From IMG/VR virus record IMGVR_UViG_3300025032_000461: DNA of 64,000 bases, one strand, 5' to 3'. Under the pieces are notes generated by a model. That model made no database searches and was not told the origin of the DNA. It saw only the letters and a list, made by a program, of their open reading frames with translations. A program made the translations under genes and the position numbers. The DNA comes from an uncultured virus (IMG/VR IMGVR_UViG_3300025032_000461). Its lineage: Duplodnaviria; Heunggongvirae; Uroviricota; Caudoviricetes. Shown here in pieces: positions 6,934 to 50,095 of this stretch (position 1 is the stretch's first letter; each line of letters opens with the position of its first letter).

Positions 6934-7647
6934 ATGAGCAATTCAATAGAAGAAAATCAGAAATATTATCAAGGTCGTTCTGGAAATCTCAATGATTTTT
7001 TATCTAAAATGAATTTAATGGTTGGTGAAGGCTCAAAATTTTTCGTCACTTTACAATCCGTTTATTTATATAGAAATAATATCAGCCATAGTAGTCATAA
7101 TAATTATTTTTCGCTCCAAAAAAATAAGTTTAAAGAAATGGCAGCAAGTTTATTATTTAATGTTGTTTTAAGGCAAGGAGGATCAGTTTTAAGCAACAAT
7201 ATGCAAAAAAATTTTAGCGCTAAGGATCTTATTGAATTTGGTTTTAATCCTAACATTATTCTCTCAAAATTAAGTGGTGAACAAAAATTGAAATCCCATG
7301 CTCAATTAAAAATCAAGATCAATAAACTGAAGAAAAAATACAATAAACTGTCTTACAGCAGCATGTTTTGTTGCAAAAAAAGATCCCCTTTATCAAAAAC
7401 AACCACATTTAACGAGCTATATGAGAGAACAAACATTAATCGCCATATGCATATGGATTTAAATCAATTAATTAAAATTAAAACAAAAATTATCAATTCA
7501 AATATTTCAACATATATCAAACTAACTAGATCTAAAAACATAATTCTTACAAAAAAAGATCTTAGCAAGAAAATGTTTTTTTTCCACAATTGTTATTTTC
7601 ATTCCAATAGTGTAGTTCAAAACAAAAAAAACTTAATTTCATTTTAA
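6934..7647 (+). CDS. hypothetical basic protein
   Basis: 237-aa ORF with AAGGA RBS; ends KNLISF. Confidence 0.6.
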   Translation: MSNSIEENQKYYQGRSGNLNDFLSKMNLMVGEGSKFFVTLQSVYLYRNNISHSSHNNYFSLQKNKFKEMAASLLFNVVLRQGGSVLSNNMQKNFSAKDLIEFGFNPNIILSKLSGEQKLKSHAQLKIKINKLKKKYNKLSYSSMFCCKKRSPLSKTTTFNELYERTNINRHMHMDLNQLIKIKTKIINSNISTYIKLTRSKNIILTKKDLSKKMFFFHNCYFHSNSVVQNKKNLISF

Positions 7648-7654
7648 AAAAACC

Positions 7655-8425
7655 TTATAATTTAAGTTTTTTTGAGGTATTTTTTAATTCTGGAAATCGT
7701 CTTGCTTCTTCTTTATTTATTATAGGCATTAAATCTTCATAGCTTTTCTTTTGAGGATTTAAACTACTTCTAACAACCATCTTATTTAATCTATCATAAT
7801 TAACATATTGTTCATTTTTCTCAACAAATGTTAATAACCTTAAGTAGTCTTCTTTCTTCCCAAGATTAAACACTTCTAGCCCAAAAATATCAGATGCATT
7901 TATTGCTGTGGCCGTTCCACCTGTCCCGTTCTTAGTATCAGCATATACCTTTTCACCACCAGATGTGTAGCATATCGTAAAATTAGACTTTGTTTTTAAA
8001 TCAACACCCAATACTTGAAACATATTTCTATTATGAAGATCTATCGTCTTTCCACTGCAGTTTTCCCAAGCCTTGTGTATTTTCTTTTCATGAATAAGCC
8101 TCATTGCCTGTCTATATAATCCTCTACTTCCTTTACCGTGTATTTCCATAGGGATTAAATAATGGGCTTTTTTTGTTGTTCCCATATTTATTGGGAAATC
8201 TTCATTTGGGATATATATTTCAGCAGTTCTATCTGGATATTCTAATGCATCTTCAAAAGCGGCATCGGCTCCTGTAGCACAACCACTTCTTAATATAAAT
8301 CCTTTTTTTTCAAAAATCATTGCTATTTTCGACATCAAGAAAAGAACATGCAGTGGTGTTTCTCTTGAACCCACGCCAGTATAATATCCTCTAAAATTTT
8401 CTATATCTTCCTTACTCATATTCAC
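7655..8425 (-). CDS. DprA/SLOG-fold protein (phage type)
   Basis: YTGVGSRETP, LRSGCATGADAAFE, GGTATA motifs. Confidence 0.75.
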   Translation of the reverse strand: MNMSKEDIENFRGYYTGVGSRETPLHVLFLMSKIAMIFEKKGFILRSGCATGADAAFEDALEYPDRTAEIYIPNEDFPINMGTTKKAHYLIPMEIHGKGSRGLYRQAMRLIHEKKIHKAWENCSGKTIDLHNRNMFQVLGVDLKTKSNFTICYTSGGEKVYADTKNGTGGTATAINASDIFGLEVFNLGKKEDYLRLLTFVEKNEQYVNYDRLNKMVVRSSLNPQKKSYEDLMPIINKEEARRFPELKNTSKKLKL

Positions 8426-8548
8426 CCCTCACCTATATTAATTTTATCATATTATTTAAATTAATAAACAGTTAATTTTATTGTTTTTGTTGTTAATATA
8501 GAGTACAATAATAGGATATATTATTATTTACGTTATTTAAGGATACAT

Positions 8549-9415
8549 ATGGAATATGGTAAGTTTGCAAAAATCAATAAAAAAGAAAAATTCAACGAAG
8601 ATAAAATAATCAAAGAATTTAGTTCCGAACAATATACAGTGGAGCAAATTTATGATATTTTTGTTAACGCTTGCTCTTTTGAATTAACTCAACTTTTTGA
8701 GTATATTGTGAAAAACTATGTATTACCTAAAAACATTATTGAGAATGGATTATTCGAGGCAATTCAATGGTCTAACGCTAATGTTTACATTAGGATAATC
8801 ACTCTTCATCCAGAACTATTTGATAGTGAAAATGTTTTTTTTACTCAAATTGGGAACAAACTTTGTAACTTACTATTTTTCAAAACCATTGAATTATTTA
8901 ACATTGATTTAACTTATAATAACTACTCTTTTTTACTACAAGCTAGTGAAGAAGGTAAGATTGCTATTGTATCTCATATTATTAAAGAATATGACATTCC
9001 TAGTGAAATTCTACTTAAATCCATTGAAAATTCAATTATAGGACACAAAAACAATACTGCAAAAACTCTTATTAATCATTATTCCATTAAAAATACAAAC
9101 ATAAAAAAAGATCATTTATTGGCACTCTCATTTAAGGAGTATAATGCACCAATATTCTCATTTATGACAAAAAAGTTCAATTTAGATATTAGCCTGAATG
9201 ATAGTTATTATTTTAACGCTATTATCAAACATAGGATTTTAAATAATTTACGAGGACATCAAATACTTTCTCTCATGAAATTGTTCTCTTTTATTTCACA
9301 ACAAGACAAAGTATTAAAGGGACTTACCTCTCAACCTATTGAGTATTATTCTAATAGTTTATTCGCTCATGATATTAAACAACTTTACATTTCTAAAAAA
9401 CTTGAAGTTTTTTAA
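8549..9415 (+). CDS. ankyrin-like repeat protein
   Basis: Repeats such as LLQASEEGKIAIVSHII; ends KLEVF. Confidence 0.6.
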   Translation: MEYGKFAKINKKEKFNEDKIIKEFSSEQYTVEQIYDIFVNACSFELTQLFEYIVKNYVLPKNIIENGLFEAIQWSNANVYIRIITLHPELFDSENVFFTQIGNKLCNLLFFKTIELFNIDLTYNNYSFLLQASEEGKIAIVSHIIKEYDIPSEILLKSIENSIIGHKNNTAKTLINHYSIKNTNIKKDHLLALSFKEYNAPIFSFMTKKFNLDISLNDSYYFNAIIKHRILNNLRGHQILSLMKLFSFISQQDKVLKGLTSQPIEYYSNSLFAHDIKQLYISKKLEVF

Positions 9416-9478
9416 TTAATAGTCTTTTTTTTACAAATAAAAATGTTACAATTAATGATAAAACAAGGAAAAACTTTG

Positions 9479-10435
9479 ATGAAACGATTTTTAAAAAATA
9501 AATGGCTGCTTGCTTTTTCATTTATTACTTTTTTCGCAATATATATAATGGATAATAAAATTTCATTTAATGACGGTATACTTACCATTCATTATCCATC
9601 AAAAATAGTTAAACTCATTAATTATAAATCAACAAATCAAAGACCTTCTCCACAATCTTCTTCTGACAGCATTCTTAACCCTGACCAGTCAAAAACACCA
9701 GATAGCATTGAGATTAGTAGTGATTCAGATCTTGATCTTATTGTTGATATTGATTATGGGTTTTTCAACTTAAGCTACAACTGCACTAAGGGAGGATTTA
9801 ATTACTTTGCTTACAATACAGTTAAAGATCCCCATATTGACATTGGTCGAGTCAGCCCTTTTCAATATGATGAACAAGTTGGTGAATTATGCCATTATGA
9901 TAATAATAGAATAAAACTCGCCAGCAATACAGATACTTATAAATCTCCAAAAGGCGCACCTTATACCTATGATAGAGGACATGGTAATCATCAAAATATA
10001 TGGGATCATGATGAAAACCTTATGAAGATCACCAACAATATGTCTAATATTGTTCCACAAGAGTCAACACAAAACAGAAGAGGTCTTTGGAGACATTCAG
10101 AAGTCATAACACAATGCTACAGACAAAATAATAGCCTTTATGTTATTGGTGGTAATATTTGGGGAAATGATGAATCAAATGATTATTTTACTAAACTTCA
10201 TGGTGTTGTTACACCTGACTATTTATTTAAAATTATTATTATGAATAATGAAACTGTATATGCATTTGTCATTCCTAATGATCCAACTGCAACTCCTACA
10301 AATTCCAGTCAATATATGACTTCAATTCACGAGATAGAAAAACTTGTTAATTATAAGTTCGATGTTAATGACTCTTTAAAAAACATTGTTTCTCAATCAA
10401 TTCCTCAGAAGCCGAAAGGCTGCTCTATTAAATAA
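9479..10435 (+). CDS. membrane-anchored DNA/RNA non-specific endonuclease (NucA/EndA family)
   Basis: N-terminal TM; YDRGH, MSNIVPQ..QNR.LW, TPDYLFKII. Confidence 0.85.
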   Translation: MKRFLKNKWLLAFSFITFFAIYIMDNKISFNDGILTIHYPSKIVKLINYKSTNQRPSPQSSSDSILNPDQSKTPDSIEISSDSDLDLIVDIDYGFFNLSYNCTKGGFNYFAYNTVKDPHIDIGRVSPFQYDEQVGELCHYDNNRIKLASNTDTYKSPKGAPYTYDRGHGNHQNIWDHDENLMKITNNMSNIVPQESTQNRRGLWRHSEVITQCYRQNNSLYVIGGNIWGNDESNDYFTKLHGVVTPDYLFKIIIMNNETVYAFVIPNDPTATPTNSSQYMTSIHEIEKLVNYKFDVNDSLKNIVSQSIPQKPKGCSIK

Positions 10436-10447
10436 AAGGCGTCATAT

Positions 10448-11482
10448 ATGTTAAAAAGTATATTAAGTAAAATTAAAAAAAATAAATTTATATCCTTCAT
10501 CATTTTATCAATAGTTGCGCTGGCTTGTGCATCATATTATTTTAATGTTATTCATTTTTATTCAGATAAAATGACTTATAATTATGCAAAACTATATAGT
10601 AATCTTACTACTACAAGTAAAACCACTAAATCCTCTAATACTTCCAATGTCGATACTAACAATGATAACACTATAGGTGTTGGTGCAGAGAAGGACTTAT
10701 TATCAAGTGTTGCAGATAGTGCTTATACTGCTGTCAATAACGGCATAAGTGCCATTAAGGACACTAGTATTATTGGAGATAAGGTCATTAAAATAGTTGA
10801 GAGAACAAACCATATTATTTACTATAATTGTAATAAAAAATCTTTCAATTATATATATTTTAAGACACAACCTACACCATTAATGAATAACGAAGAAAAC
10901 ACTGAAATCATCAACCATAACCTTAGTAAAGAGATTATTTCTCAGTGCGGATTTAACAAAGATGAACAACGATTACTTAAAAACACTTCAACATTCAATC
11001 ATGATAAATTTACTAAAGGATATGGAATACACCCTAAACTACTTGAACACAATTCTGACAATAAATACACCCATAGTGTCAGCAACTTAGTCCCCGTATA
11101 CAAAACAGATGCTAGTAGTGGCTCTCTATGGTCTTATATTGATACTGTTTTGGAGTGTTGGCAAGGAAATAGATATAAATATTCCTCTGTAGAAATCTTT
11201 TCTGGAAATATTTGGAATTCAAGTTTCGAATATGATGAAATATTTGTCAAACAAAATGGCATTCATACACCTGAATCTCTATTTAAAATAATTATTGTAG
11301 ATGATAAAGATGTTTACTCTTGGGTAATTAAAAATAGTCATGCAGTACCACTTAGCCTTGAGGGTGATTCACAATCCACTATCAGTGAAATTGAAAAGCT
11401 TTCAGGAATAACATTTGATATAAAAAATGATCTTAAAAACAAAGAATCTAAGGAATTACCTTCTTTAAAACAATGTAAGTAA
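10448..11482 (+). CDS. non-specific endonuclease paralog, probably inactive
   Basis: Colinear with the upstream gene (SNLVP, LW, GNIW, TPESLFKII) but DRGH replaced by TKGY. Confidence 0.7.
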   Translation: MLKSILSKIKKNKFISFIILSIVALACASYYFNVIHFYSDKMTYNYAKLYSNLTTTSKTTKSSNTSNVDTNNDNTIGVGAEKDLLSSVADSAYTAVNNGISAIKDTSIIGDKVIKIVERTNHIIYYNCNKKSFNYIYFKTQPTPLMNNEENTEIINHNLSKEIISQCGFNKDEQRLLKNTSTFNHDKFTKGYGIHPKLLEHNSDNKYTHSVSNLVPVYKTDASSGSLWSYIDTVLECWQGNRYKYSSVEIFSGNIWNSSFEYDEIFVKQNGIHTPESLFKIIIVDDKDVYSWVIKNSHAVPLSLEGDSQSTISEIEKLSGITFDIKNDLKNKESKELPSLKQCK

Positions 11483-11556
11483 CGTTAAACAAAATTAATT
11501 GCATTTATTCTGCATTTATCGTATAATCCATTACTAAAATACAGTTGGGGAAGCTA

Positions 11557-12183
11557 ATGCAAACAAAAGAGATTTTTTTTATAAAGAAAATTTTTGAAAA
11601 AGAAGAGTTAGAGAGTATTATTGATTGCTGTTCTAACTTTATTTTCTTTTCTCAACATCTTATATTTATTACGCTCATTTATCTTTTTACTTTTTTTTCT
11701 AACGAATTCTCCATTAAGAACTCACTTATATTGGTTTTTGGTCTTATTGCATACCTTTTTTTTGGAAGAAAAAAATACACTAATATAATTAATAATAGAA
11801 AAAGTTTTAAAAACAGATATTTTCAATTTCATGTTTTAAAAATCATGCTTACTAAATATAAAACGACATTAATTAAATATACTTTTTCCAATAGGGATTT
11901 TCTTATAATGCTTTTACAAAGAATGAAATTAAGTGATATTTTTCAAACACTTCTTTTTAATCCTTGTATCAAAAATGAGAGAAAAGAACTTATTATTTCC
12001 TATGTTTTCAAAAACATAAAGCTTGACCATGCTGATCAGTATTATCTAAGTAGGCTTAATCTAGAAGAGTGTTTTATACTATCGCCAGTGTTGAAAAAAT
12101 ATCGTTCCACAATTACCAATCTCAAAGAACATGCAATAAATCAACTCCCAGAATTAATATCTAAAAATATTCAGGGATTTTAA
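11557..12183 (+). CDS. hypothetical membrane protein
   Basis: Two hydrophobic segments; TTGCAT-17-TATAAT promoter; ends NIQGF. Confidence 0.6.
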   Translation: MQTKEIFFIKKIFEKEELESIIDCCSNFIFFSQHLIFITLIYLFTFFSNEFSIKNSLILVFGLIAYLFFGRKKYTNIINNRKSFKNRYFQFHVLKIMLTKYKTTLIKYTFSNRDFLIMLLQRMKLSDIFQTLLFNPCIKNERKELIISYVFKNIKLDHADQYYLSRLNLEECFILSPVLKKYRSTITNLKEHAINQLPELISKNIQGF

Positions 12184-12256: not shown

Positions 12257-12562
12257 ATGGACTTAGAAGCACTTATTAAGGACACAAAGCATAAAGTTAT
12301 TAATGGCATTTACGCTGATAAATCAGTATTACTACGCGCTTGTGAGTTTGGAAGTGAAGAGCTATTTGATTTAATTATCAATCAAAAAAACATTAAACCA
12401 GAATTTGATTTTAACCTCCCATTCTTCTATGCTTATCATTGTTCGCATTTTAATATCTGTAAAAAATTACTTAAATACGACAGTGTAATAAAACTATTAG
12501 AGAAACAGGATTATGAAATTTTCAAAAAAATGCAAGACTACTTAAAAATTTCAAATTTTTAA
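12257..12562 (+). CDS. small ankyrin-like protein
   Basis: LLRACEFGSEELFDLII / YAYHCSHFNICKKLL; ends KISNF. Confidence 0.65.
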   Translation: MDLEALIKDTKHKVINGIYADKSVLLRACEFGSEELFDLIINQKNIKPEFDFNLPFFYAYHCSHFNICKKLLKYDSVIKLLEKQDYEIFKKMQDYLKISNF

Positions 12563-12748: not shown

Positions 12749-13606
12749 ATGATACACAAAACACTTAATCAGGCAGTTTTAGCCGATGATATTGAAGATA
12801 TAAAATTTAAACTTAAAGGCAAAATTAATAAAAAAAATTTTACATACTCTTTAACTAATTCTTGCTTATTAGGAAAGACTGAAATACTTCGCTTATTACT
12901 TGATAAAAATAATGAAGATAAATTATTTACAGTGGACAAACTTCAGGATTGCCTATGGCTATCAATCAGGCATAGCCAGATTCAATCTATAAAAATTTTA
13001 TTAGAATATAATGTTGTAAAAAAAAGCGAACACATGAAATACATTTGTGAAGCTTGCAAAATAAGCAAAACACATGTCTTAGAATATCTTTTAGAGCTAA
13101 AAGACCTTTATGATCTTGAAGAATTAGATAAGGGTATTATTGAAGCATTCAAATATGGGAAGCTATCTAATATTAAGCTATTATTGAATAAATTTACTTT
13201 TGATAATAATATTTTAGAAAGTTGTGCATTGAATGCAACAATACATTCAAAAAAATTAAGTCTACAATATCTTTGTTCTAAAAAATGTTTTAGTGAAGAA
13301 TTCATTACACACTTATTTTCAAAATCATTACTTTCTAAGTCTAGTTTATCTAAATTTTTACTTTCAACCAATAATATAAATGTAACCCCATTATTATTCA
13401 ATGAAGTATTTCTATCAATAAACAAAAATTTTGGTCATACTTCTACATCTCGATTTAACCTCGTAATTGATAATATTATTATTAACATTAAGGAACGCAA
13501 CATTATTAATAATATTGACTTAAAGTCACTGGAAGGAATTATGGAACCTGTATTTTTTAATCGACTTCGGGAATCCTACCTGAAAAATAAAATTAGTGAA
13601 TTTTAA
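12749..13606 (+). CDS. ankyrin-like repeat protein
   Basis: Repeats SCLLGKTEILRLLL, AFKYGKLSNIKLLL; ends KISEF. Confidence 0.65.
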   Translation: MIHKTLNQAVLADDIEDIKFKLKGKINKKNFTYSLTNSCLLGKTEILRLLLDKNNEDKLFTVDKLQDCLWLSIRHSQIQSIKILLEYNVVKKSEHMKYICEACKISKTHVLEYLLELKDLYDLEELDKGIIEAFKYGKLSNIKLLLNKFTFDNNILESCALNATIHSKKLSLQYLCSKKCFSEEFITHLFSKSLLSKSSLSKFLLSTNNINVTPLLFNEVFLSINKNFGHTSTSRFNLVIDNIIINIKERNIINNIDLKSLEGIMEPVFFNRLRESYLKNKISEF

Positions 13607-14544: not shown

Positions 14545-14767
14545 ATCAATTTTTGCATACTACAATAATATTTCTTATTATAGTTTATTGTCCCATTAGA
14601 ACATTATGCTTTTTATACAAAAAAAAATAACAAAAATACATACTTTACTATTAAACAATATTATTTACAAAATAATATTAAAAATTTTTAAAAAATACCT
14701 ATTTTGTTTCTTTATTTTTAAAAAAAATGCTATAATGAATAAATAAAGGACATTAGGGGATTAAAAA

Positions 14768-16255: not shown

Positions 16256-16355
16256 ATAACACTATATATACTTGTTTATTGTTTGTCAATCATTTATTGA
16301 CTTATTTCATAATATAGATATAATATCAAAATTACTTTATTAAGGATTGAATACA

Positions 16356-17213
16356 ATGATTAGCAAATATAGAGATATTTCCATTGAGATTATTGATATT
16401 GGAGAAGGTTTTTACACTCAAGGAAATCATATATCTTTATTTGCAAAATTAACTGCAAACCTTCACAAAAAAACAAATGAACTCATTAATATTTTTGGAT
16501 TTGAAGATAATTACATTATTGATTATAATGGTTTTTTGTATTATTTAAATGATCATTACGTAGAAGAACTCATTAAGTTTAGACCGCAAAATAAAATTAA
16601 TCAAAAATTAATTTCGGTAGAGCAAAAATACAATATTGCAATTTGCAATCCACCAATTCATTCAAGCGACCAAGAAAAAAATATACTCACATTATCATTC
16701 CCGACCAATTTACTTTCAGGCTTTAATACTATTGATGACGTTTTACAAAAATTATCTGCTTTTTATCCACAATATCCAATAGCACACAAAAAATCAGAAA
16801 TTAACTTCCTTACACATCAAGTTAAAATAATTAAAAACAATAAAATGTTAAATGCAGAATATTTTCAATCAATATCTAATCATAAAGTTTATTCAATACT
16901 TGAATTAACTCATAGAATTATAGAAACTAATTTTTTACCTAATATTAGTAAAGAGAATATTATTGAATTTTATAAACAATTTTGCAACGTATCTCATGAA
17001 GAATATTATTTTGAAGTCAAATCTGATACAAATCTTCATGTTATCGGAATTTTTGCAAAGAAACTTTATAAGCATAATGTTCTGGACTACTTTTTTTATC
17101 CAATTGACGTTGTTAATAATAACGAATCTATTTTTGATTTTTTCTCAAACCGCTTCTTTTTAACAATACTACTTAAACAGTCATTTCTATCCAACAAGAT
17201 TGATCACTTTTAA
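16356..17213 (+). CDS. hypothetical protein
   Basis: TTGACT-16-TATAAT promoter, AAGGA RBS; ends KIDHF. Confidence 0.65.
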   Translation: MISKYRDISIEIIDIGEGFYTQGNHISLFAKLTANLHKKTNELINIFGFEDNYIIDYNGFLYYLNDHYVEELIKFRPQNKINQKLISVEQKYNIAICNPPIHSSDQEKNILTLSFPTNLLSGFNTIDDVLQKLSAFYPQYPIAHKKSEINFLTHQVKIIKNNKMLNAEYFQSISNHKVYSILELTHRIIETNFLPNISKENIIEFYKQFCNVSHEEYYFEVKSDTNLHVIGIFAKKLYKHNVLDYFFYPIDVVNNNESIFDFFSNRFFLTILLKQSFLSNKIDHF

Positions 17214-17317: not shown

Positions 17318-18532
17318 ATGGAAGATAACGATTTGCTCTACAATCATGTTAGGAAAGAAGAGTTGCTTACTCTTGGAGCATATCGCCTTTTAACGGAAGA
17401 ACTTGCTTGCCTTAGAGACACTACTGCTTATCGTGGTCTTAGCTTTAGAACTAAGAGAGAGTATGAAGATTTCATTCAATTGCTTGATTCAGGAGAATAT
17501 CATCCTGCAGTTCCTGAAAGTTTCTCAACATCATTAGTTACCGCTGAATCTTTTGCTAAAAATAAAAAATCTTTTTTCTTTTTCAATGACAACATTATTG
17601 CACTTGAAAACAGCTACAAAAATCTTACTTATGAAAACATATCCGTTTATGCTGGAGTTGTTATTGAGATTGTTATACCGCAAGGGGAAGGTGTTGATGT
17701 TAATCGTTCAGATTGTGGAGTTGAAGATGAAATTATTTTTTCAACACCAGATAAAATAAATTATACATACAAAATAATTGATAGTTTTGAAACTCAGTTA
17801 AAGAAAAATCCGATTGATATTAATCAATATATTTTAAAAAATGACATTAAAGATCCACTTAGTAAATACATTATGTTTAACATGCAAGAACAAATCAATC
17901 CAGCAACTCAGATGTTTATTGCAACCTCATTTTTTAAGCCTTTACCTCTAGTTAAACACATTAATAATTACCATATTGATAATGATAAAAATCTAGTTGC
18001 TTCTGAACATAATCCATCATTTTTAAACACTGATAGAATTGATATTAAGTTTCATTTCAACAATATTATATCTCCTTACCAAAGCGGTGTCTTTACAGAT
18101 CCAAATGTTATTAAATTTATTAAAGATAAACTTAATAATATTGTTCTTGAAGCTTGCGAGTTTATTGAGTCTGAATATCATTATGGAGATAGAGAAGAGA
18201 AAATCTACTATGACATGTCCAATATTAGTAATATAGGGTATTTATGCTCGGAGTATGCCCAGAATCGCATTTTAGAGTGTAATTTTATGTGTACTCCACA
18301 AACGTATAACGAAATCAATGAAGACATTAGAGCGCTTAATGGACGCGAAGATTTAACTTCTGATGAAAAAAACAATATATTCAGAAATAAGACAGAAGAT
18401 ATCAAAAATTTTCTTTTAAATAGAATTAATTCATTACCAAAAAAAGAGGAAACCGTTGCATTACAAATAGAAGAAGAAAATAATAAAAAAAATGATATTA
18501 TTATTAAAATAAAAAAAATAAGGAACTCTTAA
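17318..18532 (+). CDS. putative ADP-ribosyltransferase (R-S-E class) N-terminal domain plus unknown C-terminal domain
   Basis: AYRGLSF ... SFSTS....SFA ... EDEIIF. Confidence 0.6.
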   Translation: MEDNDLLYNHVRKEELLTLGAYRLLTEELACLRDTTAYRGLSFRTKREYEDFIQLLDSGEYHPAVPESFSTSLVTAESFAKNKKSFFFFNDNIIALENSYKNLTYENISVYAGVVIEIVIPQGEGVDVNRSDCGVEDEIIFSTPDKINYTYKIIDSFETQLKKNPIDINQYILKNDIKDPLSKYIMFNMQEQINPATQMFIATSFFKPLPLVKHINNYHIDNDKNLVASEHNPSFLNTDRIDIKFHFNNIISPYQSGVFTDPNVIKFIKDKLNNIVLEACEFIESEYHYGDREEKIYYDMSNISNIGYLCSEYAQNRILECNFMCTPQTYNEINEDIRALNGREDLTSDEKNNIFRNKTEDIKNFLLNRINSLPKKEETVALQIEEENNKKNDIIIKIKKIRNS

Positions 18533-19167: not shown

Positions 19168-19215
19168 CAAAAATAGAAAAAGGAAGCCCCTTGATTTATC
19201 TATGGGGAGTTTCAG
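19168..19215 (+). repeat. solo IS200/IS605-type right-end hairpin
   Basis: AGGAAGCCCCTTGATTTATCTATGGGGAGTTTCAG. Confidence 0.6.
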
Positions 19216-19320
19216 TATGATTGACTTTACTATTTAAATCTGTAATAATTAAACATTAATTATGGGGAGTTTCAGTATGATTGACTTTACTATTTAAATC
19301 TGTAATAATTAAACATTAAT
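19201..19320 (+). repeat. exact 60-bp tandem duplication containing a sigma70-like promoter
   Basis: 19201-19260 is identical to 19261-19320; includes TTGACT...TGTAATAAT. Confidence 0.9.
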
Positions 19321-19338: not shown

Positions 19339-19926
19339 TTGAGTGATAAAAATATTATTTTAGAAAAATATAAAAAAAATATCTATACAAGCATAGATGT
19401 TTCTAGCTTTTTTGATTATCACGACCCTTTAAAGATCATTACAACACTTATTGAGCACCATGAATATAAAAAAACTATTATTCATAATTTTATCATTATA
19501 TTGTTTTCCCTTGGCAAACATGAGATTATCAATAAAATGGAGTCTTTATATCTCAATTCCTTCTCAAATATTTATAAGGAAGAAAACTCATACGCTGCAT
19601 TTAGCGCTGCCATAACTAACAACCATATTGAGACAGTTAAATACCTTTTAGATAAAAAAGTCCCTTTTTTTAATAACTCAATAGAACTCACCATATATAG
19701 AGATAATATCGTTTTACTTAAATTACTTCTAAATAATTTTAGTCCACTATCTGACTTCTATTATACCAAATACCTATTGTTATCAGCAGATCTCAAAAAA
19801 ACTAATTTCTTATCATTTTTTGTTTTAATGCCACAGTTCAAAGAACTATCCGAACTAAAACTGTCTGTTATAAATGAGTCATATGAAAAGGAAATTCGAG
19901 CAATATTAAACTTATCACAGTTTTAA
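19339..19926 (+). CDS. ankyrin-like protein
   Basis: AAITNNHIETVKYLLDK; GGAGG RBS, TTG start; ends NLSQF. Confidence 0.7.
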   Translation: MSDKNIILEKYKKNIYTSIDVSSFFDYHDPLKIITTLIEHHEYKKTIIHNFIIILFSLGKHEIINKMESLYLNSFSNIYKEENSYAAFSAAITNNHIETVKYLLDKKVPFFNNSIELTIYRDNIVLLKLLLNNFSPLSDFYYTKYLLLSADLKKTNFLSFFVLMPQFKELSELKLSVINESYEKEIRAILNLSQF

Positions 19927-21416
19927 TTCCATCTAAAACCATTCAACAAAACCCATTCAGAAATAAATTTATTGTAAAAACTATCAATTGGTGTATTACC
20001 TTTTCCTTGTAACTGAGATATATTTCTACCGACAACACTTATTGTTGCTATATTCTTAAAGCTTAATGAATCAAAGTGTTTTACTTTTAATGAAAAAATA
20101 GAAGTTCCACCATTACTACAAGCTCGACCATAAGAACCTACACAGTGCTTCATTGATCTTCCCTCTTGACGTAACTCAACCTCTGAAAGTAGCTCTGTTA
20201 TTGTTATAATTCTTTCCTGAACTGAATCATTAGCATTCGTTCTCTCATCTTTTATGGAGTAATCCTTACCAATTGGCACCCAAGATAATACTCCCTTGTA
20301 AGAACCAATTTCTTTATGCCATTTATTCATTTTTTCATAAAGCGCATCAAGTCCATAATCTTTTATTACAAATCTTCTACCATCTCTTGTTGCAATATTT
20401 TTTTCATGCACAATGTAATCATAAATAGGCATTATTTGGTCTTTTGAGAAAAAATCTAAATTTTTATTATTTCGTAAATAACTAATAAATTCTTGAAAAA
20501 CATCCTCATTAATTATAAAATTACTCATTTTTACATGATTTTTTAAAGCTAAAATGAATTTAGGATTTATGCCTTCAAGCATAATTTCTCTGCAACTAAA
20601 GAAAAAATCTTTATTTGATTTTTGACTTACTATTTTATTTACTTGTTTTTTCGTCAACCACTTCTCTATACTTGGCAACCTTTCCTTAAAAACAGTATTT
20701 GGTTTTTTTCCATTAGCAATATCAATAAATATAGAAATATTTTTAGGATCATAAATTAGTGATTTTAAAGCTGAATCTATATTATATTTAGAAAACAAAA
20801 ATACAGCTAATTCTTCCAGTGCCTTTACATTGTTTTTTGTTTTTATTTCAAAATCTTCAATATTACTAATCCAATATTTTTCATTTAAAGCAATATTTTT
20901 TATTAAATCAATTATTTTTTCATTTGGATTAACCTCTGGCTTTCTATTATAGAAATGTATGCCAATTTTATTTGCATGACTAACAATTAATTTAGTAAAT
21001 TTTTTTGAATTAAATTTTCTTAATATTTTTTTAAATGCTATTTTTTGTTCCAAATTCATATTCTTATGTATTGAGTGTAATTGATTATACTCGTTACTTT
21101 CACCAAACTCATTCATATTATCTTTTTCTAAAAAATCAACAATATTTTCCTTACCTTGCTTCTTTTTTAATAACAATTTTTCTTTAACAATACTATCTCT
21201 GTAAATACGAATTTCTTCTTCAAACTCTTTTGTTGTTTTTTTTAGTGAAATTCTAAATCCTAGTTTCTCACAAATTAATAAATACTTATTTTTAAATGAA
21301 TTTTTCTCATTTCCTTTAAAAAACAAATCACTTAATTGCCTATCAGTTAGAACAATATCTTCTTTTTTTAAAAATACTGGTTTGACCTTTTCTTTTGAGT
21401 GTTTAATACTTTTCAT
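19923..21416 (-). CDS. PcfJ-domain protein
   Basis: C-terminal ELRQEGRSMKHCVGSY...IFSL...QLQGKGN. Confidence 0.75.
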   Translation of the reverse strand: MKSIKHSKEKVKPVFLKKEDIVLTDRQLSDLFFKGNEKNSFKNKYLLICEKLGFRISLKKTTKEFEEEIRIYRDSIVKEKLLLKKKQGKENIVDFLEKDNMNEFGESNEYNQLHSIHKNMNLEQKIAFKKILRKFNSKKFTKLIVSHANKIGIHFYNRKPEVNPNEKIIDLIKNIALNEKYWISNIEDFEIKTKNNVKALEELAVFLFSKYNIDSALKSLIYDPKNISIFIDIANGKKPNTVFKERLPSIEKWLTKKQVNKIVSQKSNKDFFFSCREIMLEGINPKFILALKNHVKMSNFIINEDVFQEFISYLRNNKNLDFFSKDQIMPIYDYIVHEKNIATRDGRRFVIKDYGLDALYEKMNKWHKEIGSYKGVLSWVPIGKDYSIKDERTNANDSVQERIITITELLSEVELRQEGRSMKHCVGSYGRACSNGGTSIFSLKVKHFDSLSFKNIATISVVGRNISQLQGKGNTPIDSFYNKFISEWVLLNGFRWN

Positions 21417-21623
21417 TATTTTTTAGACAAAGGCATTATCTATCTTACTTTGTAGATAACCAACCTTATCACTCTCCTTTTTCAGTTAATATATTTATAT
21501 TTTTTTTATTGTATTTTAAATCTAATTATATTAAAATATTATTGGAAAGTCAATACATTATTTTACTTGATATTATTTTATTTATCATTTATAATATCTG
21601 TAAATTTTGATAGAGGAAAAATA

Positions 21624-22253
21624 ATGAAAGTTGCAAAAAAAGCAACACCCAAAAATGATGAAATTAATTCATTATTAAAACTTGATGATATTTCGTTATT
21701 TAAAAAACCTTTATATCAAAATTATATAAAGAAAAATTATAAAACAATTTTAACCAGATGTTGTGAAGAAAATTTAATTAATTTTATTAGTCACATACTA
21801 ACACTCGACATTGATCCCAATTATAGATTTGGTCAACCACTTATTTCAGCTTGCAAAAATAATTCTATTGAAACAGTTCAATTATTATTAGAACAAAATA
21901 GCATTAATCCTTCAATAGAAGATAATATTGCTCTTGAAATTGCAATAGAAATTAATTCTATTAAATTAGTTGACCTATTACTATCAAACAAGAAAATCTC
22001 AAATTCCATTAACTTATACCAAATTATAATTGTTGCAATAGATTTTTTTTATGACTATTTTTACGACTGCGATACTAATTTCAAAGACAAATCAGACGAA
22101 TTTTTAGAGAGAAAAAATATTATAAAAAAACTATTATTTATCCCAAACAATAAATTTGATATAAAAAATGAATTTCTTGTTAGCAGATTATCTGATGAAA
22201 AAATAAGACTTCTTCATCAAATTAATTTAGAAAACAATATAGGATATTTCTAA
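21624..22253 (+). CDS. ankyrin repeat protein
   Basis: PLISACKNNSIETVQLLL, DNIALEIAIE; ends NIGYF; start placed after the AGAGGA RBS. Confidence 0.75.
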   Translation: MKVAKKATPKNDEINSLLKLDDISLFKKPLYQNYIKKNYKTILTRCCEENLINFISHILTLDIDPNYRFGQPLISACKNNSIETVQLLLEQNSINPSIEDNIALEIAIEINSIKLVDLLLSNKKISNSINLYQIIIVAIDFFYDYFYDCDTNFKDKSDEFLERKNIIKKLLFIPNNKFDIKNEFLVSRLSDEKIRLLHQINLENNIGYF

Positions 22254-23188: not shown

Positions 23189-23336
23189 TATGTTAACCTC
23201 ACTAATTATTTAAAAAAAATATAACATTAAAAAATAAAAAATCAACTATTTGCCAACCAAATATACTTATTTTAAATATGGTTGCATTAATTTTCCTACA
23301 ATGTTATATTTACTCATTACTTTGATAAGGATTATT

Positions 23337-23774
23337 ATGACATTATTTTATCACACCTATTTTGATCTTAGAGCAAAAAAAATAGAGGAATTATTAAAAA
23401 TTGATAAAAGTAATGAACCTTTTGAATTATTTTTTAACAAATTCATGCTTGGTAATTATCAAGATTTTATCAATACTCGAAGTATTGAAATTCTGGAACA
23501 ACCAAGGACTTTTTTTTATGATTTAATTAATTATAAAGAAGTTCGATATTTCCAACCTAACTGTAAAGATTGGTATCAATTAAGAGTAGTTCTTTTTCAA
23601 AGCAATGTCCTTAACAAAAGCAATAAAATATTATTTAATGACATTAACTCTGGATTTTACATGAGTGAAAAAAAATTTTATAAAATAAAGAAAATATGGA
23701 AAAAATACATTGATTTTATTATCTTTCACAATAATCCTCAACAAAGATTAATAAACAATATCAATCTTTTCTAA
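23337..23774 (+). CDS. hypothetical protein, paralog of 23877-24335
   Basis: Shared MxGxYxDFIxTR, WxxLxxVL and FYKIKKxW; ends NINLF. Confidence 0.65.
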   Translation: MTLFYHTYFDLRAKKIEELLKIDKSNEPFELFFNKFMLGNYQDFINTRSIEILEQPRTFFYDLINYKEVRYFQPNCKDWYQLRVVLFQSNVLNKSNKILFNDINSGFYMSEKKFYKIKKIWKKYIDFIIFHNNPQQRLINNINLF

Positions 23775-23815
23775 AATATTGCTTTTAAAAATCAACAAAA
23801 TATGATATTATAATC

Positions 23816-23859
<44 letters not shown>

Positions 23860-23876
23860 TTTATAAGGATTTTTTT

Positions 23877-24335
23877 ATGGCAGTTTTCTATGATGGAGAA
23901 TATCCAGTACCGTTAGTTTCTTCAATTTCTGATTTTATGGAAAAACCTCGTTGCGTTCAAGATTACAGAAGCATTGACTTTCTCACTCGCTATATGACTG
24001 GAAGCTATCGAGATTTTATAAAAACTAGACAAAAAGAGCTTAATATTGATGGTTTTTTTAAAAAATTTTTTACTATAAATTGTGCATTTTCAACCAATGA
24101 TCAAGAGTGGACTAATTTAAAAAAAGTATTAAAGCAGACACATTTATTTATTGAGAATGTTGATCAATCATTTTCAGAATATCAGGAGTATGCCACTTTC
24201 TCATACTTCCATATGACTTCTTCAAGATTTTATAAAATCAAGAAAGAATGGAGTGTATTCATTAAATACATTCATGACGAAAAAATGAAAAAAGACAAAC
24301 AATATTCACTTAATTTTAAATTAAGTAAATTCTAA
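23877..24335 (+). CDS. hypothetical protein, paralog of 23337-23774
   Basis: Same motifs as the paralog; ends KLSKF. Confidence 0.7.
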   Translation: MAVFYDGEYPVPLVSSISDFMEKPRCVQDYRSIDFLTRYMTGSYRDFIKTRQKELNIDGFFKKFFTINCAFSTNDQEWTNLKKVLKQTHLFIENVDQSFSEYQEYATFSYFHMTSSRFYKIKKEWSVFIKYIHDEKMKKDKQYSLNFKLSKF

Positions 24336-30196: not shown

Positions 30197-31597
30197 TTAA
30201 AATTTATTAATATTTTGAGATAAAATATTTTGACTTACTTCCTTAATTAATTCGTCAAAAACATAATAATATTTGTTTTTTGAAAAATAATATTCCATCT
30301 TAGATAAATACTCTCTTTTTGACTCTACGCTCTTATTAACCATTCTTTTAGCCCAAATACTTTCATATTCTTTAACCCAAATATAAGCGTCTTTACTTAA
30401 ATCTATTTTATTATTAAGATAATCATAAGTCTGATAAATATATTTATCATCTTTTACATACTCTGTAATTAATTTTAATTTAACTAATCGTTTTAATTCA
30501 GCAGACTCAATGCTTTTTACCAAATCCTCATCATTTACATCCCAGTATCGATTATGAATCAGTTCTGGATAATCCTTCATTACTTGTTCGGCAACATAAT
30601 TTCTATTATTCTTATAATTAGCTTGGGTTACACCTTCCCTATCTATTGTTATTCCGATCATAAAATTTGGATCTGACTGTTCTAAGTTAAAATCCCATAA
30701 TATCAACTGAACGTTATTTAATTCTGCTATATCATACTTCTTTTCATATAGCACGTAATTATTAAACAATTCTTCACTATACTGAATACACCAAGATTTT
30801 GAAGATAGTTTTTTTGATGCATTATAATCTAATATTCTCACTATGAGTTTTTTATCAACTTCATCACTCTTAATTACTTCGGCATTCAATCCTTTATATT
30901 CTATTTTCTTCAATATTTCTTCAATAGTCAAATCATGATATCCCAACAACCCCCTTACCCTACTATAAAACATATTAAAATCTTTCATAGACTTCAACTT
31001 ATCGCCTACATATTCAACTAACTCTTTCTCACTTATTTTTGCGTCATTAATAAGACAAAATAATGAAATAAGCTTTTCTGTTTCTTCCGAGTTTCCTTTT
31101 AAGAAATTATATTTTGAAGACAAGATCCCCTTCATTCTTTTTTCACCCAAGTGTCTTTTATTAAAAAAATGTATTTTATCTGAAAATTCTTCAAATGTTT
31201 TTGTTTTCAATAAAATATCTTTTTTATCCCTAAATATGTGATAATTATTTTTAAATAGTATTAAATCCTTTTTTATTTTCAAAAATTCCTGAAATACATC
31301 ATCTTCCAAATCTTCATAATATGAAAAATCTTCAAATTCTAATTCAAAAGCATTGCCATTTGCATCTTTAAATACACATTCTTCCGAATCCACTTTTTTA
31401 ATATTATCTTCAATAAAATTAAGTAAAAGATTTTTTAAATGACGAACATAAATATGATAGTTAAATTTTATTTTTTGCAAATCTTGATTAAAAAAACCAA
31501 CAAGCTTAATAATATCAGAACCTTTATTTTTAATTCTTTCATTAAGTTCACTATCCAATATCTCTTCTTCCACTGTTCTATCTTGATTATTTGCCAT
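30197..31597 (-). CDS. hypothetical protein with WCI motif (PcfJ-related, phage type)
   Basis: IVRILDYNASKKLSSKSWCI; ends NINKF. Confidence 0.55.
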   Translation of the reverse strand: MANNQDRTVEEEILDSELNERIKNKGSDIIKLVGFFNQDLQKIKFNYHIYVRHLKNLLLNFIEDNIKKVDSEECVFKDANGNAFELEFEDFSYYEDLEDDVFQEFLKIKKDLILFKNNYHIFRDKKDILLKTKTFEEFSDKIHFFNKRHLGEKRMKGILSSKYNFLKGNSEETEKLISLFCLINDAKISEKELVEYVGDKLKSMKDFNMFYSRVRGLLGYHDLTIEEILKKIEYKGLNAEVIKSDEVDKKLIVRILDYNASKKLSSKSWCIQYSEELFNNYVLYEKKYDIAELNNVQLILWDFNLEQSDPNFMIGITIDREGVTQANYKNNRNYVAEQVMKDYPELIHNRYWDVNDEDLVKSIESAELKRLVKLKLITEYVKDDKYIYQTYDYLNNKIDLSKDAYIWVKEYESIWAKRMVNKSVESKREYLSKMEYYFSKNKYYYVFDELIKEVSQNILSQNINKF

Positions 31598-36941: not shown

Positions 36942-38025
36942 ATGAAAAACCTATATGAACTTAATGAAAAAATTTCTGAATTACAAAACAACTTGTCAAC
37001 TATGATCGGCCACTGCCTTTAGCACCTCTCTCACTGAAAGGACGGAAGAACTATCCCTACTTTTAAGCCAAAATGATATCTGGACTACTCAATTACAAAA
37101 TGCAACAGAATACAGTAAAGAGCTTAGTGATATCAACTACAAAAAAAATACCTTTAACACATTACAATCAGAACTTAATTCACTAAATGAACTCACTAAA
37201 GAAAGTGAAGAATTTTATGATGTTATTTATCAAGAATTAACATTACTCACCATATCTATTGACACATTTTATAAAAAAATATTTTTAAACAGAAAACATG
37301 ATCCAAATACATGTTATCTAACAATTAAATCAGGCGTAGGTGGATTGGAGTCAATGGATTTCACAAAAATGTTACTACAAATGTATTTAAAGTATTTATC
37401 AGAAAATAACATAAAACACAGCATTGTTGATCTTAATGAAGGTGATCAAAAACTTATTAATAGTGTCACTGTTTTAATTAGCGAACCTTACGCTTACGCT
37501 TACTTTAAAAATGAAGCAGGCATACATAGATTAACAAGAGTATCACCCTTTGGTAATGGAAAGTTGCATACTTCCTTTACAGAAGTTCAAGTTCTGCCTA
37601 TTATTGGCAAAACTTCTTTTGAAATTAATAAAAAAGACCTTAGAATTGATACCTATCGAGGTAGTGGTGCTGGTGGTCAACATAGGAATAAAACTGACTC
37701 CGCTGTTAGAGTTGTTCATATACCTACTGGTATAACAACAACGTGTGAAGGAGAAAGAAGCCAACACGCCAATAAAGAAACAGCTATAAACAAACTACAC
37801 TCTGAATTAACATTGCTTTATGCTCAACAGGATAGTGACGTTAATAATTCATTTAAAAATGAACACACATCGCAATGGGGCAATCAAATAAGATCATATT
37901 TATTTAATAATAATTTAGTTAAAGACCATATTACTAACATTGAGTATAATATTCATGATTTTTTAAATGGAAATATTGGCGAAAGCATCAAACTTAAGTC
38001 TTGTTTACAAAATAATAAGTCTTAA
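36942..38025 (+). CDS. prfB: class-1 peptide chain release factor, RF2-like, needing a +1 frameshift at CTT-TAG (37017-37022); about 360 aa
   Basis: 26-codon ORF MKNLYE...GHCL-TAG with AAGGA RBS; +1 frame open from 37021 (...SQNDIW...GVGGLESMDF...SPF...GAGGQH...WGNQIRSY). Confidence 0.9.
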
Positions 38026-40116: not shown

Positions 40117-40117
40117 T

Positions 40118-40735
40118 ATGACTATATGTATGCGTTGTCGAGTTGACGATAAAAAATATTCATTCAAAGAAATTCCAGACCGATTTTATTGCGATTGTAA
40201 TGTTCATATTGCAAATAAGGCTATTGAATTTCAACTATCTAGAAAGCAAGCAGAGGATTCATTCTTTGATGAACTTAATGATTTTAATAAATTTGAAAAA
40301 TTTGAAAAATTTAAAGAAAAACAAAACTTACAAGATGAATATAGTTTTGACTTCGAAGATTACTCCGACATTAATGATTTTACCCCACTTTTAGAAACCA
40401 AGGGCAATAATGCCTATAAAAATAGTTTTTCAAAAGCTGAAAATCTTAATTTTAAAAATAAAGAAAACCTTTCTTATATTGATACAACTCTTGTTGTTTA
40501 TAAAATTATATCATTATTTCCACTAGAGAAATCTTATAAAATTCGTCAAAAACAAGAGGACTCTATTAAATCATTAATTCTTGATTTTCACTTTAAACAA
40601 AATAAAAAAGAAGATCAATTAATTAATAATAACACACCCTTAAAAATCAAGACAAATAAATTAAAAACTACCGTCATTAAAGAAAGAAAGTGTGACTATA
40701 AATCAAAAGTTACTGCAAAGGTATTAACAATATGA
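40118..40735 (+). CDS. hypothetical protein with N-terminal CxxC...CxC
   Basis: CMRC / CDC. Confidence 0.55.
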   Translation: MTICMRCRVDDKKYSFKEIPDRFYCDCNVHIANKAIEFQLSRKQAEDSFFDELNDFNKFEKFEKFKEKQNLQDEYSFDFEDYSDINDFTPLLETKGNNAYKNSFSKAENLNFKNKENLSYIDTTLVVYKIISLFPLEKSYKIRQKQEDSIKSLILDFHFKQNKKEDQLINNNTPLKIKTNKLKTTVIKERKCDYKSKVTAKVLTI

Positions 40736-41187
40736 ATAAAATATTTAGTTTACTTAATTACAAAAATAATAAACAAGAGGGATTTTCATATAATTCGTTC
40801 AAAAAAGAAGTTGACTTAAAGATACTTGTTGAGCGAAAAAATACAAAAAAATTCATTAATGATATAATTAAAAATATAGACAATGTTAGTCATCAAAATT
40901 CTAAATTAATTCAATATAGAGCTAACCTTAATTTGCGTAATAACTTAAATAATAATAGAGAAAAATTTAAGAATGAACTTAATTTTATTACAAAAAAAGA
41001 CTTTAATAAAAAAAATGAAAATAACAAAAAATGTCCAACCAATGAATCACTTTTGAGTGATATTTTTTCAGCAAAACATAATAACGTGCATAGTTATATG
41101 GACGAAGACCAATTAATATTAAGGTTAAATAAAAATAAGCACAAAAATATAAATAAAAAAATTAAATTCAAAGTAATTACAATATAA
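40732..41187 (+). CDS. hypothetical Lys/Asn-rich protein
   Basis: ATGA overlap with the upstream gene. Confidence 0.5.
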   Translation: MNKIFSLLNYKNNKQEGFSYNSFKKEVDLKILVERKNTKKFINDIIKNIDNVSHQNSKLIQYRANLNLRNNLNNNREKFKNELNFITKKDFNKKNENNKKCPTNESLLSDIFSAKHNNVHSYMDEDQLILRLNKNKHKNINKKIKFKVITI

Positions 41188-45917: not shown

Positions 45918-45938
45918 TATTAATCCTTATCATTACTT

Positions 45939-48451: not shown

Positions 48452-48518
48452 AATTGTTGACTTTTCTTACCTATTAGGCTATAATTTTGAATTAAAGTAA
48501 TTTACAGGAATATTATTA

Positions 48519-49694
48519 ATGTTACTAGGTTTCTCCCATCATGAATTATATCAAAAACTTAATGTGCTTGTTAAAAACAATAGCGCAGTATTTAGCTATA
48601 CTGATACAAATATAGACGGTTCAATTTACCGTATTTTTTCTTATTCCTCTGCTGATTATAAATCTTTTTTAGCTGACGGTGCAATCGAGTGTCGTGGAAT
48701 TACATTTTTTATTGACGAACAAGAGAATTTTTTATCGCTCATATCATTACCTATGGAAAAATTCTTTAATTACAACGAAAACCCTTTTACACAAAATATT
48801 GGGGAAGAAACTGTTTCCATTGCGACCTATAAAGAAGATGGTTCTTTAATATCAACTTACCTTCACAATGGCAAAGTACACCTTAAATCAAAAGGTTCAT
48901 TCTTTTCAGAACAGGCAATTGCGGCAAATGAACTTTTACTAACATTTCCTGAATTAAAGCAACGATTACAGCATTATGAAGAACTTGGTTACACGGTAAA
49001 TATTGAATACACAGCTCCCGACAATCAAGTTGTCCTTGTTCAAGAAAAGCAAAATTTAATTATTTTAAATATTAGATCACGAAAAGATGGTTCTTATTTA
49101 TCTTATGACGATATCCTTGCACCAAAAGAACATATGGTATCTGTTTTAAGTGAGTACCATAATATGACTCTTAAAGATTTTTCAGTACTTATGTCTGGAT
49201 TAAAAAACTTAGAGGGTGCTGTTGTATTAACCAATAAAAACAAAAGGATTAAATTCAAAACAGACTGGTACTGTCAAAAGCATAACACATTTAATTATTA
49301 TTCACCTTGGGGTAGAAAAGGTAGACGTGAGATCATGAATGCCATTCTTAATCAAACCATTGATGACACTAAACAGCTTTTTGTCAATAATAAGCAAATG
49401 AGTTTTATATTAAATAGTGTAGAGTCTTTTACTATCGAATATATTCAAGAATTAACCAATGAGATTACCTTATTTTGTCAGGAAAATTCCGATCTTGATT
49501 CTTACTCATTCTTTAAAAAATGCACCTCAACTTTCAAAGATGATAACATTAAATTTACCTGTGCTATGAGAACTTACAATGGTACCCTAAAATCTATTTT
49601 AGAGCAAATTTACATTGCAACCCAATCCAGTAAGTTTTATAAATATAATAAGTTTTTGGAAAATTTAAACATTGGTTATAACGAAGATGATTAA
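48519..49694 (+). CDS. T4 Rnl1/RnlA-type RNA ligase
   Basis: ECRGI, PMEKFFN, KEDGSLI, EGAV, KFKTDWY. Confidence 0.9.
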   Translation: MLLGFSHHELYQKLNVLVKNNSAVFSYTDTNIDGSIYRIFSYSSADYKSFLADGAIECRGITFFIDEQENFLSLISLPMEKFFNYNENPFTQNIGEETVSIATYKEDGSLISTYLHNGKVHLKSKGSFFSEQAIAANELLLTFPELKQRLQHYEELGYTVNIEYTAPDNQVVLVQEKQNLIILNIRSRKDGSYLSYDDILAPKEHMVSVLSEYHNMTLKDFSVLMSGLKNLEGAVVLTNKNKRIKFKTDWYCQKHNTFNYYSPWGRKGRREIMNAILNQTIDDTKQLFVNNKQMSFILNSVESFTIEYIQELTNEITLFCQENSDLDSYSFFKKCTSTFKDDNIKFTCAMRTYNGTLKSILEQIYIATQSSKFYKYNKFLENLNIGYNEDD

Positions 49695-49720
49695 TATCAC
49701 TATTTTTCATAGAGGTTATT

Positions 49721-50095
49721 ATTAGCGACTATAGTTTTGACCTCTATTCAACCTACTATGATGAACTTAATGTTTATTATTCTGGGCTAAAACTTCCGAT
49801 TAAATTTTCAGAAAACAAACTTATTAATAATGTCACTCATAATATTATTGAAACGGAAAGTAATCACATATTTTACTTTGTGAATGAGTTACTTCACAAT
49901 GAAGTTGATTCACCTTCAATTATTTGGAATGACGGTTCTACATTTTATTATAAATACGGACAACTACATCGAGATAACTTAAAGCCAGCCGTCATTTACT
50001 CATTTGGAGAAAAACTGTATTATATTGACAACAAAAAAATAGATAAGTCCATTATTGATCAATTAATACTTGAGAAAAATATTAATTTATTTTAA
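49721..50095 (+). CDS. LHRxxxPA repeat protein; possible ATT start
   Basis: Frame open from 49691; GAGG then ATT at 49718/49721; ORF track start is GTG 49880; ends NINLF. Confidence 0.5.
   Translation: MSDYSFDLYSTYYDELNVYYSGLKLPIKFSENKLINNVTHNIIETESNHIFYFVNELLHNEVDSPSIIWNDGSTFYYKYGQLHRDNLKPAVIYSFGEKLYYIDNKKIDKSIIDQLILEKNINLF

Follow-up and report, generated by a model that had tools for sequence, protein, structure and literature searches.

The DNA analyzed here is a stretch of 64,000 nucleotides (the window) from the uncultured virus IMGVR_UViG_3300025032_000461, a member of the Caudoviricetes, in which the genes are arranged densely and in bacterial style, many of them behind Shine-Dalgarno-like sequences and TTGAC-N17-TATAAT promoters. 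Twelve of the 57 non-overlapping open reading frame products in the window, or about one in five, close with the same short peptide, [KN]-[IL]-x-x-F-stop, which is referred to here as the tag (Table 1). The tag is found at the extreme C-terminus of proteins that are for the most part dissimilar, and selection on it acts on the peptide. An original prediction made from the letters of the DNA had listed twelve such endings, and all twelve were found again at the same coordinates and with the same letters. Each is directly followed by TAA, as is an isolated thirteenth copy. Literature searches returned no published description of a shared C-terminal tag on phage proteins.

Table 1. Tagged genes of the window and the isolated thirteenth copy of the tag (aa, amino acids)
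Position	Strand	Product	Ending	Remarks
6934..7647	+	237 aa, orphan	...QNKKNLISF-TAA	
8549..9415	+	288 aa, helical-looking orphan	KQLYISKKLEVF-TAA (KLEVF)	
11545..12183	+	212 aa	LPELISKNIQGF-TAA (NIQGF)	hydrophobic hairpin near residues 30-75 (by eye)
12257..12562	+	101 aa, ankyrin-like	KKMQDYLKISNF-TAA (KISNF)	
12749..13606	+	285 aa, sub-threshold ankyrin	RESYLKNKISEF-TAA (KISEF)	
14653..14691	+	13th tag, read as a relic	KQYYLQNNIKNF-TAA	intergenic; 35-codon frame lacking an ATG, GTG or TTG start
16347..17213	+	288 aa, orphan	KQSFLSNKIDHF-TAA (KIDHF)	start probably ATG at 16356
19339..19926	+	195 aa, sub-threshold ankyrin	KEIRAILNLSQF-TAA (NLSQF)	
21567..22253	+	true ankyrin-repeat protein	HQINLENNIGYF-TAA (NIGYF)	start probably 21624 (209 aa)
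23250..23774	+		PQQRLINNINLF-TAA (NINLF)	start probably 23337 (145 aa); paralog of 23877-24335
23877..24335	+	152 aa	KQYSLNFKLSKF-TAA (KLSKF)	paralog of 23250-23774; intrinsic terminator follows
30197..31597	-	466 aa, orphan	SQNILSQNINKF-TAA (NINKF)	directly upstream of ClpB, same strand
49880..50095	+	71 aa from GTG	DQLILEKNINLF-TAA (NINLF)	start uncertain

Enrichment, consensus and coding of the tag

Inside the same proteins, the pattern occupies 37 of 18,765 five-residue windows (0.20%), giving a binomial P = 2e-21 for its frequency at the ends. When the last 30 residues of each protein were shuffled 5,000 times, hits averaged 0.16 and never exceeded 3, compared to the 12 observed. Counting stop-to-stop segments in all six frames, the ending closes 12 of the 68 segments of at least 100 aa but only 23 of the 5,531 non-coding segments of 5-59 aa. 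Among long segments from outside the window, those with the ending number 3 of 1,295 for other viral loci (47 loci, 22-43% GC) and 4 of 745 for bacterial or archaeal loci (at least 120). As the internal, shuffled, short-frame and outside-locus controls all lie far lower, AT-rich composition, which had been raised in the original prediction as a possible source of such a frequency, does not explain the tag. The carriers are unevenly distributed: 11 of the 12 lie among 24 genes of one 25-kb stretch at 6.9-31.6 kb (Fisher P 1e-4), 11 of the 12 are encoded on the plus strand, and the twelfth (49880-50095) is found 18 kb away from the others.

Alignment of the twelve tails from the stop codon extends the motif to 12 residues, K-Q-x-x-L-x-[KN]-[KN]-[IL]-x-x-F-COOH, upstream of which conservation ends abruptly. 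All twelve tails hold K/N at -5, I/L at -4 and F at -1; K/N is present at -6 in eight, Q at -11 in seven (P 2e-8) and K at -12 in five, and the L or I that had been described as lying a few residues upstream can be placed at -8 in nine (P 5e-5). With leave-one-out scoring by a position-specific scoring matrix (PSSM), 9 of the 12 tails reach at least 6.2 bits. Helical-wheel arithmetic brings positions -12, -11, -8, -5, -4 and -1 within about 120 degrees, on one helix face. Of the AlphaFold2 (AF2) models, only that of the 101-aa carrier is usable (predicted local distance difference test, pLDDT, 74.9), the model of the 195-aa carrier having a pLDDT of 39. The usable model is all-helical, with the final helix at residues 86-96, the last five residues as coil and pLDDT below 50 at residues 99-101; together with the Asn/Lys residues at -6 and -5, it suggests that the end of the tag is exposed. 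The thirteenth copy, KQYYLQNNIKNF, scores 16.6 bits against the PSSM, above all 18,366 internal 12-mers (maximum 10.4). We read this copy as the relic of a lost carrier, and it would therefore speak for gene turnover.

Selection at the level of the peptide, as had been proposed, is supported by the variation in codons, the absence of a DNA repeat and the absence of a shared RNA fold. Synonymous codons vary at every conserved position: I is encoded by ATT, ATA and ATC, L by TTA and CTT, F by TTT and TTC, K by AAA and AAG, and N by AAT and AAC. Among 58 direct-repeat families, the 20 largest all lie off the tagged 3' ends. No common RNA hairpin is found there either, as 11 of the 12 ends are no more stably folded than their shuffles (z -1.5 to +1.7) and the one that folds better (z -5.3) owes this to the intrinsic terminator after the stop codon of 23877-24335, which lies beyond the tag. 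Tagged and untagged genes are not told apart by their promoters; sigma-70-like sites precede both, and their total count equals that of shuffles.

Two further features lie in front of tagged genes. At 19196-19315, just upstream of 19339-19926, a 60-base unit is present as an exact tandem duplication (97% identity), each copy carrying a TTGACT-N17-AATAAT promoter-like site, and a run of TTA/ATT trinucleotides, about 45 bases long (23806-23860), is found between the two tagged paralogs, in the promoter region of the second.

Carriers, untagged genes and the element

An all-against-all BLASTP comparison finds a single pair among the twelve carriers, the products of 23250-23774 and 23877-24335 at 29% identity, and the other ten show no similarity at E < 0.01, which bears out the earlier description of the carriers as mostly unrelated; their sizes are given as 101 to 466 aa. 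The accompanying description of ankyrin-like carriers holds in part. One (21567-22253; Ank_2, 35.2 bits) passes the Pfam cut-off and three fall below it, whereas the remaining eight have no ankyrin match. Among those below is the 101-aa carrier, with Ank_2 at 20.6 bits against a cut-off of 27.3 and weak Foldseek rows for its model that are mostly ankyrin proteins (E 0.5-1.4). The 6934-7647 product matches no Pfam, PHROG or NCBIfam family, the 8549-9415 product has no family above cut-off, and no family match was obtained for the 11545-12183 product. When these first two and the 12749-13606 product were searched by tblastn against 50,697 phage records, no match was returned for any of the three. 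The 16347-17213 product is present from residue 4 in the protein-language-model clusters (Atlas), where no relative is listed (scores at most 0.77). The stop codon of 19339-19926 overlaps that of the convergent gene 19923-21416. The frame of 49880-50095 is open from 49694 (133 aa) and its product has no Pfam family above cut-off; MORN-type repeats guessed by eye in 49694-50095 received no support from Pfam or PDB sequences.

Searches for relatives were largely empty. For the 466-aa carrier, a search of 5.8 billion proteins gave one marginal match (E 6.7e-4), and for the paralog pair the same search returned only these two window proteins. An exhaustive HMMER search with the ankyrin carrier 21567-22253 produced 3,248 matches, all to the repeat region; its tail has no ortholog there, and 1 of 149 other proteins among the matches listed ends in the motif. 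The strict DNA pattern KQxxLx[KN][KN]IxxF-TAA was found once in each of 47 viral loci, none of the matches ending a frame of at least 80 aa, and once in each of at least 120 prokaryotic loci, with one match on a long frame; in both collections, this is chance level. The only close relatives for anything tested in the window are those of the untagged gene 4904-6763 (plus strand; phrog_2319), namely P0157 and P0158 at 55% and 53% identity, the former being encoded on a contig of 257,619 bases. Three viral loci found with the alignment of this neighboring gene are distant and untagged. The carriers behave as a fast-evolving accessory set.

The tag is absent from all 21 proteins that match an enzyme, housekeeping or phage family, compared to 12 tagged among the 36 others (Fisher P 0.002), in agreement with the claim that enzymes lack it. 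The claim that no carrier has an obvious cleavable signal peptide also holds when the N-termini are read by eye, and the eight proteins whose N-termini show a Sec-type signal or lipobox, judged in the same manner, are all untagged. Three observations concern untagged genes. Adjacent paralogs of a non-specific DNA/RNA endonuclease (9443-10435 and 10448-11482, plus strand; 30% identity), each with an N-terminal hydrophobic anchor, lie in the middle of the tagged cluster yet are untagged. The N-terminal third of 17318-18532 (plus strand) displays, by eye, a spaced YRG ... STS ... EDE pattern that we take to resemble an R-S-E ADP-ribosyltransferase such as T4 Alt; as neither Pfam (E up to 5) nor PDB sequences (E up to 1) gave a match, this is only a lead. 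Finally, the overlapping neighbors 40118-40735 and 40732-41187 (plus strand) end in KVLTI and KVITI with no BLASTP similarity between them, and may have either another short ending in common or a shared origin as a pair that has since diverged.

In regard to the element itself, family scans of the window identified TyrRS, a short ThrRS, RF2, PTH2, ClpB and a Pif1-like helicase; a T4-type RNA ligase 1, dCMP deaminase, MazG-like, HD and 5'-nucleotidase proteins; and DprA-like, HNH and PcfJ-like proteins. This recognizable set is the accessory repertoire typical of huge phages. The PcfJ-like protein has a sole match among phage records, at 23% identity, in LR756511.1, an uncultured 595-kb huge phage (43% GC) in which none of 84 long frames is tagged, and the closest Atlas clusters of the 466-aa carrier are Uroviricota hypotheticals (score 0.92). 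Based on the gene set, the PcfJ-like match and these clusters, we take the element to be a section of a huge tailed phage. It could also be a giant plasmid, since neither a capsid nor a terminase gene is present in the window. No tRNA genes were found in the window. The window forms the opening 64 kb of a metagenome contig of 119,273 bases, and a 44-mer searched for in the viral and genome contig collections was found in neither. Sampled sequence words of the window are present at fractions of 0.23-0.33 in two RNA runs and below 0.2 in two more, which shows nothing by itself, and the 20 DNA runs, labeled aquifer metagenome, all count as possible sources and therefore give no independent support.

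Several of these genes have features of their own. RF2 (36942-38025, plus strand) displays the classical programmed +1 frameshift. Its first frame of 26 codons (MKNLYELNEKISELQNNLSTMIGHCL, then stop) overlaps the beginning of the main one (open from 37006), and prfB autoregulation is thus retained by the element. ThrRS (31948-33144, plus strand) has only 398 aa, with a class II core plus an anticodon-binding domain, and presumably lacks the N-terminal domains of bacterial enzymes. GC content is 25-30% from the start of the window to about 51 kb, carriers included, and 34-37% beyond. Past this point lie three giant tandem paralogs on the plus strand (51223-56694, 56909-61942 and 62485-64000; 1,823, 1,677 and more than 505 aa), which are Cys-, Ser- and Thr-rich, 59-80% identical and begin with a signal-like N-terminus. 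Their DNA is 34-37% GC versus about 28% elsewhere. None matches a Pfam or PHROG family, and the only plasmid match is marginal and in Alteromonas.

A proposed docking handle and its competing explanations

The reading we prefer, with the chances for and against it about evenly balanced, is that the tag is a docking handle for one cytoplasmic partner. It is based on the exact Phe-COOH end, the polar and hydrophobic positions brought onto one helix face, the exposed tail, and the absence of the tag from enzymes and exported proteins. In such a mechanism, a short amphipathic helix would present Q(-11) and L(-8) on one face, the polar [KN][KN] pair would form a break after it, and the flexible [IL]-x-x-F tail would let a pocket in the common partner take up the terminal Phe with its free carboxylate. 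The element would have placed this handle on fast-evolving, accessory, non-enzymatic proteins, several of them ankyrin-type binding modules, and with a common handle on all carriers, one partner could therefore deal with them all. The original prediction had proposed a portable address label for a machine encoded by the element. Of this, a portable handle read in the cytoplasm fits, given the peptide-level selection, the dissimilar carriers and the absence from enzymes and from Sec-type proteins; no candidate for the machine emerged. The data show the motif, its place at the very end, the selection on the peptide and the range of dissimilar carriers, and from these we infer that the tag binds something and what this would be.

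A number of points weigh against a docking handle. No reader of the tag was identified, and no ortholog was found for any of the six carrier families probed. The tags of the 6934, 11545 and 12257 genes fit the five-residue core only, with leave-one-out scores below 0. In the one usable model, that of the 101-aa carrier, the last helix is formed by the first half of the tag, which may therefore pack on the body of its own protein instead of on a partner. The sole link of ClpB to the tag is its position directly downstream of the 466-aa carrier on the same strand; when the N-domain of ClpB (residues 1-150) and the 101-aa carrier were co-folded, the score was 0.00 in two runs without controls, which counts neither way. 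Lastly, the crowding of the carriers into 25 kb and largely onto one strand is also how diverged tandem paralogs would look.

The main rival reading is that of a tandem family of paralogs that have diverged. The tag would then be an inherited family mark, the carriers descending from one tandem-amplified ancestral gene of which only the C-terminal helix was conserved, for fold or self-association. This is possible, though we regard it as unlikely. Apart from the crowding, one clear paralog pair, the four carriers with ankyrin-type signals and the modeled helix in the first half of the tag are in keeping with it, but the carriers differ widely in length, and the remaining ten share no detectable similarity. 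Moreover, the hydrophobic hairpin of the 11545-12183 product is absent by eye from the ankyrin-type carriers, conservation stops abruptly at 12 residues, and one carrier is far from the rest. Strong selection on an exact Phe-COOH end would, even within such a family, still need a reader.

It is improbable that the tag is instead a membrane-targeting amphipathic helix lying on the inner membrane, as the C-terminal helices of MinD and FtsA do. The terminal position would suit such a helix, as would the hydrophobic positions -8, -4 and -1 and the K/N residues that separate them, but only three or four of the 12 residues are hydrophobic and the net charge is -1 to +3 (mean near +1). Lipid binding also needs neither the polar residues conserved by position at Q(-11) and N/K(-5) nor the exact end, F then stop, seen in all 13 copies.

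More improbable again is a translation-termination signal, in which the last 12 residues would act from the ribosome tunnel to modulate release at UAA, maybe with the element's RF2 and peptidyl-tRNA hydrolase. All 13 copies end F-TAA and the element encodes both PTH2 and a prfB with its programmed frameshift; TAA, however, closes 46 of the 57 genes regardless, we know of no arrest peptide of this form, and such a signal gives no reason for the restriction to non-enzymatic proteins. A nucleic-acid element over the 3' ends (a terminator, recombination site or repeat) or plain AT-rich composition can be dismissed as next to impossible, for although the codons of K, N, I and F are AT-rich and the carriers lie in AT-rich DNA, the frame, shuffle and outside-locus counts, the variable synonymous codons, the repeat families and the single stable fold beyond the tag all speak against it.

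Known systems and possible partners of the tag

If the tag is a docking handle, its partner could be an AAA+ unfoldase or protease, encoded by the host or by the element itself, with the carriers as interchangeable adaptors or clients; this is proposed tentatively. As adaptors, the carriers would bring bound host proteins to the machine, and as clients they would be removed by it on schedule. This link is favored because the recognizable carrier bodies are binding modules. One parallel is found in the poxvirus ankyrin proteins described below, and another in SspB, which is described in one account as tethering itself to ClpX (PMC9963277). As with SspB and ssrA, a short peptide is placed at the extreme C-terminus of a cytoplasmic protein, and the tail of SspB tethers to the AAA+ machine while its body binds cargo. 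Unlike SspB, which has a long flexible linker, the tag directly follows the body, and the sequences of the tag and of SspB/ssrA are unrelated. Neither ssrA nor the tail of SspB is known to end in Phe, and the ssrA-like/ClpX degron classes end in LAA-like or basic RRKKAI-like residues. As all twelve tags end in F and none in AA, they do not belong to this class, although a novel class of degron is compatible with them.

Considerably more doubtful is an adaptor repertoire in the style of poxviruses, in which a dozen or more fast-evolving carriers would each grab a different host protein and plug into a single unfoldase or protease, possibly the phage ClpB, so that the host targets would be dismantled. 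An account of poxvirus ankyrin proteins describes a C-terminal F-box-like (PRANC) region that binds Skp1 of the SCF ligase while the repeats take substrates (PMC4353913). The likeness lies in a common C-terminal module on many variable binding-repeat proteins serving a single machine, which is the host's there and proposed here. The differences are that the tag is also found on non-ankyrin proteins, and that Shine-Dalgarno sites, sigma-70-like promoters and the prfB frameshift mark its surroundings as bacterial. PRANC (PF09372) is in addition several times longer than 12 residues, and neither it nor an F-box was matched by the 57 proteins at E up to 0.01 or by four of them at E up to 5.

About equally likely as the AAA+ version, and thus equally tentative, is that the tag labels its carriers for packaging, for export or for a compartment. 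Peroxisomal PTS1, encapsulin cargo-loading peptides and microcompartment encapsulation helices are short, transferable signals recognized by one receptor or shell protein, and like the tag they are C-terminal peptides on unrelated proteins. Their consensus differs, however, and their carriers are mostly enzymes, which lack the tag here; family scans of the window revealed no shell, encapsulin or receptor gene. Type I and type IV secretion signals are C-terminal, uncleaved and free of a Sec signal, with no strict consensus and a cognate transporter; no transporter gene was found in the window by the same scans. A report on the Chimalliviridae identified no conserved signal sequence for import into the phage nucleus, recognition being by a surface and not by a terminal signal (PMC11087766). 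The likeness is that a large phage sorts a chosen subset of proteins; the tag, unlike that system, is a linear terminal motif.

Other sorting signals were considered and rejected. The Phe-ending signal of outer-membrane beta-barrels requires an N-terminal signal peptide and a beta-barrel body, whereas the twelve carriers have no signal peptide by eye and the body is helical where modeled. A real barrel protein of the window (50315-51007; Gcw_chp) ends NWKF, without the [KN][IL] core. The C-terminal domain of the type IX secretion system (T9SS CTD), PEP-CTERM, LPXTG and similar sorting domains gave no Pfam or NCBIfam match.

A docking handle for a host hub such as RNA polymerase or the sliding clamp is less likely, and we would place little confidence in it. 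The sliding-clamp motif QL[SD]LF is often found at extreme C-termini, and T4-type phage proteins have C-terminal clamp-binding tails; it resembles the tag in being a five-residue hydrophobic motif with a Phe-COOH end that is common to unrelated proteins. The motif itself was rejected, as position 1 of the tag is K/N in all twelve and never Q, and position 4 is hydrophobic (V, Y, L, L) in four and polar or Gly in eight.

Terminal peptides that send unrelated proteins to one machine, such as ssrA, PTS1 and the encapsulin cargo peptides, have been very useful handles in cell biology. A statistically unambiguous 12-residue tag on about one-fifth of the genes of a huge phage provides an experimental entry, as the peptide can serve as bait for its reader and may reveal the property common to a large block of orphan accessory genes. 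If this reader is an unfoldase, a protease, or a packaging or export machine, the tag would be a ready-made tool.

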